From Eledone cirrhosa (lineage: Eukaryota): a stretch of DNA of 64,000 nt. Positions 7,176 to 20,168 of this stretch are shown here, piece by piece (the stretch's first letter is position 1; every line of letters begins with the position of its first letter). The notes under the pieces were generated by a model that was not told the origin of the DNA, did not search any database, and worked only from the letters and a program-made list of their open reading frames with translations. The translations under genes and the position numbers were made by a program. The stretch covers positions 59,024,001 to 59,088,000 of the forward strand of contig OZ024747.1 of the NCBI GenBank assembly GCA_964016885.1, given 5' to 3'.

Positions 7176-7211
7176 TCTTCTGATAAAAGACTAGTGTCTG
7201 AAACGTTAAGA
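7176..7211 (+). ncRNA. Minimal type-I hammerhead-like motif, family H1
   Basis: TCTT-CTGATAA-A-AGAC-TAGT-GTCT-GAAA-CGTT-AAGA; helix I TCTT/AAGA; G8>A core mutation. Confidence 0.55.
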
Positions 7212-7344
7212 CTTTCTTCCTGCTATTTCAAGCGTTGTACTGTGCCGTTTCTCTTGTTATTTCTATAATTTTTTACACACACACACACACACACACACAC
7301 ACACACACACACACACACACACACACACACATACACTTATATAT

Positions 7345-7530
7345 GCGAGAAAAACCACAAACACTCCATCTCAATTCTACTTTTGAAAAGCATAAGAACG
7401 GTGAAGAACGGTAAAGGAAACAAATAAATATTCTTAAAAAGACTGCAGTTGCATTTTCGATTTCTTTACCTTATACTTTCACTCGTGTAGGACATCTCGT
7501 TTTGTTTTTTCATTTTAAAAAAAAGTCGCA
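7345..7530 (+). repeat. Dispersed element family B (inverted homolog at 12510-12700)
   Basis: CTCCATCTCAATTCTAC...GTTGCATTTTCGATTTC...CACTCGTGTAGGACA is the reverse complement of 12510-12700. Confidence 0.8.
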
Positions 7531-9252
7531 TTATCTTATATATATATATATATATATATATATATATATATATATGAAATAGAGTCGTCCCAAAGTGATC
7601 ATATGAAGACATCGAGTGAAGCAATCATAAAGACAGAGAATACCAATGTTTCAAACAATTTTCTTATCTATTGTTTATAATGAAGAAGATACGTAGGCAT
7701 CTGTTTAAAAATACCATATCTTTCTTTTTCTCTCTCTGTATTTGGCTGAATGTTAATCGGTTGCCGATAACTGTTTATATAAACATATTGATTTATACAT
7801 ATATATGTGTGTGTGTGTGTCTATAAATATATATATGTATACACACATGTATAAGTAAAAGTGAACTGCATGCATAAAATATACTTTATTTATCATCATT
7901 TAACGTGAAATTTCATTACATTCAAGGAATTATTATAGTAAAACAGAAAATAGTGTCGTTAACCGAGGTTTGTAGTATTGGTAAGTATGAACACTATCTT
8001 TATCTCACTTCCATAATTCAAGAGAAATTTGTTGGCTTCAGGGAATCTGCGATATGGTTTTAATTTTAGTCGAAATTCCGCATTAAGATATATGTTTCTG
8101 TTGTCATGATTTTATGCATCGCGTTTCACTTCACGATTGAGCTATAAAATAAGAGTTTCAAACTTTGCTCTTTTAATGTTCCATTACATAAAGCCGTAGT
8201 GATTCACCTTTTCCCATATCTTTAGTTCGGAAGCCGCCCTTGACAGTAATTTACCTCCATTCGAAGTAATTTCTTTCAGTTTTATCGTTCATCTGTTGAC
8301 ATGCAACTTTACTTTCATAGATCGTCTTACTAAAGCATTTACCATTCAGCAGAAAATGCTTCTTCTTAATACTATCAAGTTCGTTTACTATGTTGTTGCT
8401 CTCGTAAGATCTTCAATATTTAATTGTTTTTGTAGTTGTTTTGCGTATTATTACTCACATTCTTTTTGCAATTCTACCTCACTTTGACAGTATATTTATT
8501 AAATAGTTTCAGGTTACCTAGAACACAATTCCCAATTACATTTCATAATGATTCCACTTGACATTAATGAGAGTATAATTCGTTTTCTGGATTAGCTTTA
8601 ATGACCCGTACACTCTCGCAAAAACCTCTTCATTCTAAGATCCTGCTGAAATAATTAGCTGTTTAATTAAATTTTATATTAACTGAAGATAAATATATAT
8701 TCTCCTAGTTATATATTCTGTTATATAATATAACAATATATTATATCTTGTTAGATGTTCAAAATGTTGTGTATATATATATATATATATATATATATAT
8801 ATATATATATATATATTGTGTGTGTGTGTGTGTGTCTGTGTGTATACATACAAATATATATGTGTGTTTGTGTGTGTGTGTGTGTGTGTGTGTGTGTGTG
8901 TGTGTGTGTCTGTGTGTATACATACAAATATATATATGTGTGTTTTTGTGTGTGTGTGTGTGTGTGTGCGCGCACGTATGTATTTGGAAACGACAGGATC
9001 TCTATTGATTTCTATATCAAATATATTGAAATTTGATATCGGAGTATACATAATATATCACGCATTAAACTTACAAACATCAGTTGTACTCTAAGCTACA
9101 GAGTTTTCTACGAGTGGAGGAGAATGTTTCAAAATAGTTGTTACTTTTGTTTAGCTTCATCTCAGTCATGCTTGAGCAGATGTTCATTTTTTTATAACTA
9201 AATCTGTTCCGGTTGCACTGACCTTGTTGCTGTTTGGTTGTAGCATACTATC

Positions 9253-9420
9253 TAAGAAGAGCCTCTTTTATCCGCAAATTACCCACGTTCCTCTCCTCTA
9301 CTGCTTTGGTGATCTCAATATCTCAACTGGCATTTTTCTCGTTGTATGCTCCAGGAACGTGGGTAATTTGCGTATAAAAGACACTCTTCTTATACACAGG
9401 CATAAACCATGCTCTAACAA
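9253..9420 (+). pseudogene. Penelope-type GIY-YIG endonuclease C-terminal remnant with partial inverted duplication
   Basis: 9353 onward reads RNVGNLRIKDTLLIHRHKPCSN (compare L-x-I-K-E-x-L-x-I-x4-P-x-L-N); inverted arm 9253-9292 reads RNVGNLRIKEALL. Confidence 0.5.
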
Positions 9421-10280
9421 CGTATCTGATCCACATGGAGCCAACTGACTTTTGTGGCTGGTCTGCGATTGTTAAATTTCGACCAAAGATTTACCGCACA
9501 ACATGAGAGCAAGAGACTTCGGCGTTTCTTCGTTCCTCGTGTAGAAAAGATGTTCTACCTAGAAATATCATGAAATAGAGAAAAAAACTATTTTGTGTTA
9601 TCATACTTACTTTACCTTACTCTAGTTCGACAATTATATCTCCTATTCGAAGTGTAACGGCTCTCACAATACTTTCTTAATTCTCCCCCCCCCTCTCTCC
9701 CTCCTTCCCTCCCTCTGTCTCTCTCTCTCTCTCTCTTCATCTCTTACCTATCTATCCATACTCACACACCCGCACACATATATATTTACATATAAATATA
9801 CATGTATATATCAAGTACATATAAGTATATATAAATATAAGTATGTATGTATATATATGTATATATATATGTGTGTGTGTGTGTGTGTGTGTGTGTGTGT
9901 GTGTGTGTGTGTGTGTGTGTGTGTGTGTGTGTCCAAATTGACGCGTTGTACACTTAGTGAACTAGTGAGACAGGGTGTTTCCTAATAGTGTTTGAGCACT
10001 AACTAAATCAGGTAAATTAAGTTGCAGTCCTTACAGTACTTATACTCGGGATTGATTTTTGACACGTCTTATACACATGTATATAGAAAAGAATAAAAAA
10101 CATTAAGCATCATCAAAATTTTATTTTGCCTACACACACACAAAGACACACACTCTCGTATATATATATATATATATATATATATATATATATATATATA
10201 TATATATATATATATATACATATATATATACATATATATATACATATATATATATGTGTGTGTGTGTGTGTGAAACAATT

Positions 10281-17030: not shown

Positions 17031-17066
17031 TCTTAACGTTTCGGACGCTAGTCCTTCAACAGAAGA
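17031..17066 (-). ncRNA. Minimal hammerhead-like motif, family H1
   Basis: Minus strand: TCTT-CTGTTGA-A-GGAC-TAGC-GTCC-GAAA-CGTT-AAGA. Confidence 0.55.
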
Positions 17067-18189
17067 AAGAATGAGAAATAAAATAGATTGAGGGGACGGG
17101 CGGGCTGGAATTTGAAAAAATCCTTTAGATAAAAATAACAGGTCCATTCATGTTGACATCTCTTGCAAAACTGTTGATGCTGGCGTTTTGTGTATGATTT
17201 GTTTTTTAGAAAAGTGGATGATGGAGCGCGTCTACCTGAAATGGATAAAAAAAAAACATATATATATTATACACATACATACATGCATATAATTTACTAC
17301 AATATATGCAAAATACATTCGTCTGATATATATATTAGACTGTACCTACTAACTATTTGCACATTTAGCCCATCAACCACTAAAATGTACGCTATATACT
17401 CCAATGGGCCATACCATTCGATTCCCCATTTAATAAGACCCCTTTAACGCTTCTCACCACACGTCTTACCCAAACCTCTTCCCTAGCCCAGTAAAATCAG
17501 GGATATTCTCATTTCCAACAATTACCACCAGCACCACAACCCCGCTTCGTTCACCCTCAAACTAGACCCTAATACAATAACTACTAATAAAATTTACTTC
17601 CACATGGAAAAAAAAGTAGGACAGTGACTTCGAAGTTTCGCCTAGGGTCGGCTTCGTGAAAGTTAACATCAATATAACACTAATACAATAAATTATTTCA
17701 AAATGTATTATTTAGTCAGCAAACCATGCCATAGTTTTCAGCACACCTTACAACACCATTGATGTGTTCCATTGTCTTCTTAGACTCCGATATCTTAGAA
17801 AATATTTCAGTAAAAGTTATGCTAGAAGTTTCTTCTCCAGCTAAGTAACAGCGCTGATTTGGTTACGTTTTTCTACAACATTCTATGATTTGCTTGTTCT
17901 ATCACTTATTCATATTCTTCTCACAGTTTTCAGACTAGATTCATCGGGATAACTTAATAAGAATGCTTTTGTTCGATCGAAGTACTCCACTTTAAGAAAC
18001 TGTAAATCATTTAATATCCACACACACACACACACACACGCACACACACACATACACACACACACACACACACACACACATACACACACACACACACACA
18101 CACACAATGTGTGAGTCATTACTTCTGTCGTTAGATATACGCATGCACATTAACAAACGCACGCACATATATACATTTATATACATACA

Positions 18190-20015
18190 TATATATATAT
18201 ATATATATAATGTATAAATATATATATATATATTATAAATACATACACACATACACACACAGATATATATATATATATATATATATATATATATATATAT
18301 ATATGTATATATATGTATATGTATATATATGTATATATATATATATATATGTATATATATGTATATATATATATATGTGTATATATATATGTATATATAT
18401 GTATATATATATATATATATGTATATATATGTATATATATATATGTATATATATGTATATATATGTATATATATATATATATGTATATATATGTATATAT
18501 ATGTATATGTATATATATGTATATATATGTATATATATATGTATATATATATGTATATATATATGTATATATATATGTATATATATATGTATATGTATAT
18601 GTATATGTATATGTATATGTATATATATATGTATATATATATGTATATATATATGTATATATATATGTATATATATATGTATATATATATATATATATGT
18701 ATATATATATGTATATATATATATGTATATATATATGTATATATATATATATATGTATATATATATATATATATGTATATATATATGTATATATGTATAT
18801 ATATATGTATATATATATGTATATATATATATATATATGTATATATATATGTATATATATATATATATATGTATATATATATGTATATATATATGTATAT
18901 ATATATGTATATATATATATATATATGTATATATATGTATATATATATATGTATATATATATATATATGTATATATATATGTATATATATATATATGTAT
19001 ATATATATATATATGTATATATATATATGTATATATATATATATATATGTATATATATATATATGTATATATATATGTATGTATGTATATATGTATGTAT
19101 GTATATATATATGTATGTATATATATATGTATATATATATATATATGTATATATATGTATGTATGTATATATATATGTATGTATATATATATGTATATAT
19201 ATATGTATGTATATATATATGTATATATATATGTATGTATATATATATGTATATATATATATATGTATATATATATGTATATATATATATATATGTATAT
19301 GTATATATATATATATATGTATATATATATGTATATATATATGTATATGTATATATGTATATATATATGTATATGTATATATATATATATATATGTATAT
19401 ATATATATATATGTATATATATATGTATATATATATATATATGTATATGTATATATATATGTATATATGTATATATATATATATATATGTATATATATAT
19501 GTATATATATATATATATATGTATATATATATGTATATATATATATATATATGTATATATATGTATATATATATATGTATATATGTATATATATATATAT
19601 ATATATGTATATATATATATATATATGTATATATATATATATGTATATATATATATGTATATATGTATATATATATATATATATATATGTATATATATAT
19701 ATGTATATATATATATATATATGTATATATATATATGTATATATATATATATATATGTATATATATATATATATATATATATATGTGTATATATATATAT
19801 GTATATATATATATATATATATATATATGTGTATATATATATATGTATGTATATATATATATATATATGTATATATATATATATGTATATATATATATAT
19901 GTATATATATATATATATATATGTGTATATATATATATGTATGTATATATATATATATATATGTATGTGTATGTATGTATATATATGTATATATATATAT
20001 ATATATATACATATA
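18190..20015. repeat. About 1.8 kb (TA)n field punctuated by TG
   Basis: Directly visible. Confidence 0.95.
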
Positions 20016-20132
20016 TACTTTATTTTTATTTATTATTTATTATAATTTTGTCTTTATTTGTTAATTTTTCATTCGCACCTTTTCCTTTCGCTATATGTCT
20101 CTCCACCACTCCCATACACACCTTTTGAACTC

Positions 20133-20168
20133 TTACCCGAAGAAGGGCTTATGCCCGAAACGTCGTCC
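20133..20168 (+). ncRNA. Minimal hammerhead-like motif (H1-related) in a 240-bp island between two kb-scale (TA)n fields
   Basis: AC-CCGAAGA-A-GGGC-TTAT-GCCC-GAAA-CGTC-GT; GUC triplet; AATAAA about 40 nt downstream. Confidence 0.55.

Follow-up and report, generated by a model that had tools for sequence, protein, structure and literature searches.

Truncated 3' ends of two Penelope-like element families with predicted minimal hammerhead ribozymes in Eledone cirrhosa

Truncated Penelope-like elements (PLEs) whose ends carry minimal hammerhead ribozymes have already been described across animals. Most of these ribozymes are single motifs linked to truncated PLEs, and in vivo evidence on the role of the PLE hammerhead is absent according to the same work (PMC4209133). 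PLE reverse transcription has been reported to start internally at an AT-rich target; the hammerhead was not required in vitro, and reads at the cut were lacking (PMC11167929). The PLE linker has been associated with microsatellite targeting (PMC8557442).

In the 64,000-nucleotide stretch of E. cirrhosa contig OZ024747.1 analysed here (the window), four short cassettes carry hammerhead motifs (Table 1). Our results indicate that the cassettes represent 3' ends, truncated on the 5' side, from two PLE families, each with the minimal hammerhead motif in its pseudo-LTR (pLTR); we put the probability of this reading at about 0.93. Copies are named after the position of C3: 7180(+), 12068(+), 17062(−) and 20137(+). 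All four motifs that a sequence-only reading had described (CYGWNRA, an A, a stem, GAAA and CGTY) are present, as are the palindrome ACGT of helix III, the helix I TCTT/AAGA of copies 7180 and 17062, and AATAAA in two copies (at 12221 and 20203). Every cassette adjoins (TA)n or (CA)n, also as described; the proposed size of 200–280 bp does not hold for copy 17062 (311 bp). Three copies have a core substitution, and 12068, taken for the unsubstituted copy, indeed retains its core but has both helices I and II broken. More specifically, copy 7180 has an inserted A, helix II AGAC/GTCT, GAAA and CGTT, with a predicted cut after 7207; copy 17062 has helix II GGAC/GTCC, GAAA and CGTT, with a predicted cut between 17035 and 17034; and copy 20137 has helix II GGGC/GCCC, GAAA and CGTC, with a predicted cut after 20164. 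In copy 12068 helix II reads GGAC/AGTC and the 3' side of helix I is ATAA; its cassette is split by an expanded (CT)n at 12100–12200. The cassette of 17062 starts with a splice-acceptor-like pyrimidine tract; an ORF-bearing copy has a 3' end that matches this cassette at 96% identity. A tblastn search revealed no PLE ORF pieces in the window, and no PDB sequence match was found.

Table 1. Positions of the PLE 3' ends and hammerhead motifs in the window
Feature	Positions	Strand	Remarks
Family 1 PLE 3' end, older subfamily, 5'-truncated	7095..7276	+	flanked by (TA)n and (CA)n; best relatives 74–92% identical
Minimal hammerhead motif, copy 7180	7176..7211	+	helix I TCTT/AAGA; core CTGATAA (G8A)
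Family 1 PLE 3' end, older subfamily	11975..12286	+	5' boundary approximate
Hammerhead remnant, copy 12068	12064..12099	+	core CTGATGA intact at 12068; helices I, II broken
Family 1 PLE 3' end, younger subfamily	16944..17254	−	311 bp
Minimal hammerhead motif, copy 17062	17031..17066	−	helix I TCTT/AAGA; core CTGTTGA (A6U)
Family 2 PLE 3' end, very young	20015..20257	+	relatives 98–99% identical; within long (TA)n tract
Minimal hammerhead motif, copy 20137	20135..20166	+	2-bp helix I AC/GT; core CCGAAGA (U4C lineage)

The cassettes had been regarded as a single family, and this is not the case: 20137 has no significant DNA match to 17062 (best E 0.32) and is therefore assigned to a separate family. 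Family 1 comprises 7180, 12068 and 17062 and has more than 4,500 motif copies genome-wide, while family 2 comprises 20137 and has more than 1,900, which bears out the suggested abundance. The proposed search for linkage to an RT/GIY-YIG ORF was successful in both families: longer genomic copies continue upstream into an ORF with reverse transcriptase (RT), a CxxxCxxC linker and GIY-YIG. In 16 of 60 loci the ORF end (...LGLN-stop) lies 217–357 bases upstream of the cassette 17062 anchor, and a frame of 625 aa in locus L061 contains YIDD, CxxxCxxC and YALRCSLCGSLYIG. Whole pLTR-ORF-pLTR copies exist in family 2, where six loci (L142, L158–160, L163 and L164) have two hammerheads 4.3–4.8 kb apart; in L142 and L158 the motifs DKG, YIDD, CNTC and YVGQT lie between them. 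The linker between RT and the endonuclease (EN) reads CSRSRCNTC in family 1 and CSRPRCNTC in family 2, and the internal cysteine pair of GIY-YIG (CCHH finger) is found in YALRCSLCGSLYIG and YGLRCTRCSATYVG, respectively, with EH and HF downstream. ORF homologs (647 of 8000 scored) are at best 48–56% identical and have the Pfam labels RVT_1 and GIY-YIG; our Pfam scores are under the curated cut-offs (E 1.4e-4 and 6e-4 for RVT_1, 0.045 for GIY-YIG). None of the genomic copies retrieved showed an uninterrupted full ORF, and no ORF-bearing copy was traced for the older family 1 subfamily of 7180 and 12068.

The copies share a 3' end and differ in 5' reach. The family 1 tail is at a constant distance in 45 of 54 tail-bearing loci, and a microsatellite directly follows the 3' end in 50/58 family 1 and 71/74 family 2 loci. 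In 8 of 25 family 1 loci there are tandems of tail, (AT)n and 5' UTR, together with a hammerhead located upstream at −271 to −327. The upstream hammerheads of L061 and L064 were rejected as pLTRs; they belong to separate insertions ending in (AT)n and were therefore left out of the pLTR counts. Both families have an acceptor-like pyrimidine tract followed by CAG about 170–190 bases before the hammerhead, a DNA pattern that may or may not mark a spliceosomal intron in the pLTR or 5' UTR.

Neither family was found in the literature searched. The motifs resemble published PLE minimal hammerheads in the type I order, the CUGANGA/GAAA core, the extra base between A9 and G10.1, the G10.1–C11.1 pair and the palindromic 15.2–16.2 without loop 3; single motifs of truncated elements predominate here as well. 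Helix II has 4 bp here and 7–8 bp in the Schistosoma families, whereas the 2-bp helix I of family 2 is like that of the D. virilis variant. Judging by the linker motif, both families likely belong to the Neptune clade; note that Nematis PLEs likewise carry the linker (PMC8557442). EN+ PLEs of the Neptune clade share with them the RT, a CX2-5CxxC linker plus, at the C terminus, a GIY-YIG with two internal cysteines, together with partial tandems, 5' truncation and microsatellite flanks (PMC8557442), but the 3' UTR is long here, about 0.5 kb and 1.3–1.6 kb before the hammerhead. The Poseidon element PAc of Anolis (Frangieh et al. 2024, PMC11167929) is similar in its apparent internal start of reverse transcription behind the hammerhead and its AT-rich targets. 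In both systems copying survives a weakened hammerhead: in the U4C lineage of family 2, and in vitro with catalytic mutants of PAc. The PAc ORF begins in stem II, while it begins 0.4–0.6 kb behind the hammerhead here. Since this arrangement is known, the cassettes as found are of little significance in themselves; the young family 2 is of value as a natural test bed for what PLE hammerheads do.

Could the motifs be chance resemblances in repeat-rich DNA? The predicted folds of the cassette monomers do not stand out from those of shuffles (z 0.08 to −1.04), and a loose hammerhead descriptor, allowing one base between A9 and helix II, gives 2–11 matches per shuffle without the CGT tail. With the tail there are no matches in 30 block shuffles; it is thus the tail that carries the signal. 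Genome-wide, CTGANGAAG..CGAAACGT gives 12,835 matches as compared to one for the reversed control, and N7 varies freely among the matches. The motif occupies the position in the pLTR known from other PLEs (PMC4209133), and the A-U/G-C swap in helix II between the families is compensatory, as had been proposed. The counts and the ORF linkage refute chance, the probability of which is practically nil. The suggestion that AGAC/GTCT is also compensatory fails within family 1: T at 11.1 accompanies A at 10.1 in 11 and G in 9 of the first 100 copies listed of each kind (Fisher p 0.81), so helix II of copy 7180 represents two independent decays. Selection of the motifs as host-useful ribozymes or regulatory RNA elements would agree with a core consensus that persists in most genomic copies, where the genome-wide check asked for before shows CUGANGA kept. 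Of 21 unbiased copies in family 1, 16 have an intact core, and the family majority has CUGANGA and GAAA, an NUH site, G10.1–C11.1, the extra base after A9 and a palindromic helix III. None of the four window copies has this full minimal type I set; all four are damaged in core or stems, and no host genes were recognised around them in the ORF list. Core changes are about as frequent as those in the flanks (5/231 and 29/903 sites, in 21 of 29 loci), stems break without compensation, and motif decay looks neutral. We therefore regard host use as highly improbable. Private decay seems to account for the core changes of 7180 and 17062; A6U is rare (30 copies versus 4,168), and with only 30 copies it was rejected as a lineage. 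The copies in the window are probably inactive relics. In an Rfam scan, hammerheads were absent among the best 150 of 835 matches, and microsatellite-like miRNA models dominated the scan.

The cassettes had also been proposed to be either solo pLTRs or monomers of a non-autonomous retrozyme-like family, which would spread via its own small (circular) RNAs. The former is one option for the window copies, which do not form a single non-autonomous, retrozyme-like family. ORF-less tandems do exist in family 2, at other places in the genome: an array (C8) of 416-nt units, in which 59.8 kb hold at least 141 hammerheads (131 with an intact core), is 97.8% identical to a full family 2 copy, and further dimers of 387- and 571-nt units end in (TA)n. 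These arrays were clearly cut from the PLE. Internally deleted copies occur in 12 of 25 family 1 loci, but their junctions mostly differ. The array and the two dimers, not the window cassettes, have the layout of non-LTR retrozymes, i.e. ORF-less units, each a few hundred bases long and with one hammerhead, arranged in tandem. With the animal non-LTR retrozymes (PMC7229834; bioRxiv 10.64898/2026.07.22.740005) they share units of 387–571 nt with a single type I hammerhead; they differ in that the array hammerheads are minimal, not canonical. The window copies, in contrast, are solo stubs with differing 5' ends, and the upstream reach of 20137 exceeds that of the 387- and 416-nt units. The closest genomic relatives have a fixed 3' end and variable 5' ends, the longer ones reaching the RT-endonuclease ORF; for 17062 and 20137, whose relatives reach 3' UTR and ORF, the retrozyme-like explanation is largely refuted. 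Taken for all four cassettes it is improbable. Any single stub may descend from an ORF-less derivative because such derivatives exist in both families. In family 2, the change of a PLE end into a retrozyme-like satellite, a step that bioRxiv 10.64898/2026.07.22.740005 proposes, can be viewed directly at 98% identity.

If the cassettes are truncated PLE ends, they may have formed as follows. The endonuclease would nick (TA)n DNA; such targeting is inferred from the flanks in a genome that is full of microsatellites. Reverse transcription would have an internal start on the RNA, at a short AT tract that lies some 95 nt behind the hammerhead (ATAC(AT)n between tail and 5' UTR in family 1, TTATA in family 2) and would mostly stop early, leaving stubs. 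Stubs that span the hammerhead would derive from RNA that was uncut, or religated, at that site, and cutting would therefore be slow or partial, and copying would not depend on it. Any ribozyme activity would be that of a dimer, or aided by protein, in tandem transcripts.

In three sequence groups, 5' junctions increase immediately downstream of the predicted cut; only one of the three has an exact spike at the cut. In family 1 an exact spike was rejected: 18 copies start at the cut and 36 at a control with equal TA microhomology. The control pattern is less strict, and one duplicated cluster contains three of its matches. A downstream control is uninformative for family 1 because the element contains an internal ATATAT. 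The older family 2 subfamily has no exact spike (2 in the first 100 of 311 matches). It is a doubtful possibility that young family 2 subfamilies record in vivo hammerhead cleavage. A share of the template RNAs would have been cut at GUC/GUC. Reverse transcription of the 3' products would have given insertions of about 95 nt whose start is the scissile bond (in 27 independent loci) or, after trimming, lies a few bases behind that bond; the U4C-weakened lineage still spread to at least 51 sites. If true, this would be the first genomic footprint of cellular cutting by a Penelope minimal hammerhead that transposition can do without, and it would come from the family that gave rise to the 141-unit retrozyme-like satellite. 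No published 5' junction pile-up was found in the literature search, judged from the search entries.

The core-variant lineage that went on transposing adds, with a pile-up of 5' ends that may exist at the cut, to the value of family 2 as such a test bed. U4C of copy 20137 was inherited from a source copy, and its lineage has at least 51 near-identical copies. An apparent family-wide occurrence of U4C (25/25) was rejected as an artefact of query selection, the true ratio being 94 versus 1,807. The linked marker is missing in 14 of 20 unselected U4C loci, mostly in other subfamily backgrounds.

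The four hammerhead motifs that the sequence-only reading had claimed were all found at their places in the window, with C3 at 7180(+), 12068(+), 17062(−) and 20137(+). Each has the same layout, namely a CYGWNRA core, one extra A, a hairpin region of 12 bases, GAAA and CGTY. When the CGT tail is required, the descriptor matched in none of 30 shuffled versions of the window; in the whole 3.0-Gb genome the plain hammerhead pattern has 12,835 matches as compared to 1 for the reversed control. Monomers fold no better than shuffles, which is expected of motifs without helix III. Core substitutions in three of the four copies were also seen as claimed (G8A, A6U and U4C), and in the fourth copy helices I and II are broken.

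The cassettes had been described as one family, and there are two instead. Cassettes 7180, 12068 and 17062 match one another and have a common tail, ...TTTACCTTTTAC (family 1), while 20137 does not match any of them (family 2). Exact patterns give genome-wide 4,168 + 385 + 30 copies of family 1 and 1,807 + 94 of family 2, all lower bounds. The proteins of the two families are 65% identical across 358 residues. Regarding helix II, the proposed covariation holds between the families only: GGAC/GTCC versus GGGC/GCCC is a real compensatory swap, yet a single event. Inside family 1 there is no covariation. AGAC/GTCT is not compensatory, since T at 11.1 is as frequent with G10.1 as with A10.1 (9/100 vs 11/100, p = 0.81; hand counts of the first 100 matches listed per class), and C at 11.1 sits within CpG. 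In 21 ungapped copies, from 29 chosen via the upstream region, stem pairs are broken without repair, and divergence from the column majority is 5/231 sites in the core and 29/903 in the flanks, where anchors cap mismatches. Genome-wide, 385 of about 4,550 family 1 motifs carry A10.1 in place of G. This frequency is high for a non-CpG site, and the A10.1 motifs, in which the closing pair is broken, may represent a further source lineage.

The window cassettes are ends of Penelope-like elements (PLEs). Copies of 17062 have one common 3′ end and differing 5′ ends, and the distance to the family 1 tail is constant in 45 of 54 tail-bearing loci (58 examined). Upstream of 17062-type ends, 16 of 60 loci have a 3′ UTR preceded by ...CSRSRCNTC...YALRCSLCGSLYIGQTGR...LGLN-stop, and further upstream family 1 has a reverse transcriptase (RT) with YIDD in a 625-aa frame. 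In family 2 two hammerheads lie 4.3–4.8 kb apart in six loci; RT, linker and GIY-YIG motifs are found between them in two (L142 and L158). Pfam matches of the element protein are weak and below cut-off. Its homologs (647 of 8,000 scored) are labelled RVT_1 and GIY-YIG, the best being 48–56% identical; the few named ones are from coral, gastropods and sea urchin. Inverted arrangement of ends is typical for PLEs; in one locus (L024), read by eye, the copy is adjoined on its 5′ side by a diverged end in inverted orientation that carries a hammerhead. A CX2-5CxxC linker marks Neptune and Nematis in the available text of PMC8557442, and both families appear to be Neptune-type, a label taken from the linker and not from a tree. 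The motif, its place and the fact that it mostly occurs alone agree with what is published on metazoan PLE hammerheads, as far as the accessible parts of PMC4209133 and the review PMC6765202 go. Both families belong to a known kind of element, with one testable lead. Relatives of the two families may be among the motifs and families listed in the supplements of PMC4209133 and PMC8557442.

The tail runs directly into an AT or AC run in 50/58 family 1 and 71/74 family 2 loci; in the three family 2 exceptions it continues into the element's 5′ UTR. In family 1 tandem copies an ATAC(AT)n tract belonging to the element separates the tail from the 5′ UTR; family 2 has TTATA at this place. With nicked (TA)n DNA as the primer, reverse transcription would begin at the internal AT tract. 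In the anole element PAc, in vitro work has demonstrated both initiation at an internal site and AT-rich targets (available part of PMC11167929).

A copy spanning the hammerhead implies that its RNA was uncut there. We asked whether 5′ junctions adjoining (AT)n are concentrated at position 0, the predicted cut. The count, made by hand, took in clean junctions at G or C positions that lack AT microhomology and left out rows with filler bases and one repeated chimeric junction of older family 2. Young family 2 has 48 clean junctions over 7 positions (0 to +9), 1 over 6 positions upstream (−3 to −11) and 19 over 11 positions further downstream (+12 to +30). The corresponding numbers are 33 over 8 vs 2 over 6 positions in older family 2 (first 100 of 311 matches listed) and 19 over 4 vs 13 over 7 in family 1. 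In young family 2, 13 clean junctions lie at position 0 vs 1 at −3 in the same GTC context; with fillers counted there are 28 loci (two with a common flank), 27 of them 5′-truncated stubs of 93–102 bases.

The junction step near the cut is solid. Its cause is not, because of the controls at other G positions, the older subfamily and family 1. A downstream G in similar context has 5 junctions in young family 2 (13 vs 5, p = 0.10), upstream G positions with microhomology have 10–13, older family 2 has 2 at position 0 among the first 100 of 311 matches listed, and in family 1 the cut has 18 vs 36 at the loop II control. We give hammerhead cleavage about one chance in four of being the cause. RT stalling ahead of a folded or protein-bound motif is a candidate that accounts for both the rich and the poor junction zones. 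Other candidates are microhomology between the C/A-rich stretch and CA repeats, and a transcription start; in D. virilis transcription starts 46 bases before an intron ending at helix I (PMC2377424 and PMC4209133, in the parts available). Of the first 100 of 311 older family 2 matches listed, about a fifth share one chimeric 5′ junction, a GT-rich flank joined at +13, which suggests a fragment carried inside another repeat.

The haplotype of 20137 (C4 with a linked G marker) makes up 51 of the 59 matches within one mismatch; the others are 6 U4 with and 2 C4 without the marker. Among unselected family 2 loci the marker occurs in 0/30 U4 and 6/20 C4. It follows that a source whose two pLTRs both have C4, as found in L142, was copied at least 50 times. 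Since U4C lowers activity in vitro and is tolerated in a viroid (accessible text of PMC3088659), the lineage shows tolerance of a weak core, not outright dispensability. Its spread agrees with the PAc catalytic mutants.

Window copies had been proposed to be retrozyme-like units, and they are not of this type; such units occur elsewhere in the genome. A family 2 satellite on contig C8 is built of a 416-nt unit that combines tail, 5′ UTR and pLTR and shares 97.8% identity with a full copy. At least 141 units, 131 with intact core, span 59.8 kb with neither end reached; higher-order variants are 555 and 397 nt. Two ORF-less family 2 dimers (L161 and L162; 387- and 571-nt units) have (TA)n at their end, as ordinary insertions do. 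In family 1, 12/25 loci hold copies with internal deletions, whose junctions mostly differ. The array, dimers and deleted copies fit the proposed origin of animal retrozymes from PLE ends (bioRxiv 10.64898/2026.07.22.740005 and PMC7229834, as far as available). L215 and L216 are identical in sequence, though on different contigs, and several other deleted copies cluster at 89–90 Mb of contig C3.

Coordinates (in the window unless a contig is given) and loci of elements and repeats
Feature	Position	Strand	Detail
Family 2 satellite	C8:31412601-31472399		L156, L157, L230-L233
Internally deleted family 1 copies			5′ UTR/ORF start joined to 3′ end: L210, L215-L217, L219-L222, L225-L229, L020
Short repeat with inverted arms	44750-44860		CTGATGA...GAAA minus at 44812, similar string plus at 44823
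ORF fragments, presumably non-LTR retrotransposon	32085-35368	−	RT motifs QGDSLSP and YMDD; PD..D-type nuclease region
Presumed mariner-like transposase remnant	23527-24024	−	

The short repeat with inverted arms matches several other loci and is not a clean hammerhead. A piece similar to the ORF fragments is also present in L061. On both strands of 57282-57354 the Rfam mir-9 model scores 46 bits vs the 58.6 cut-off; this segment is probably not a miRNA, because it lies within an inverted repeat also found in L016. An abundant palindromic, MITE-like repeat embedded in (TA)n occupies 44940-45150 and stands beside many PLE stubs in the fetched loci.
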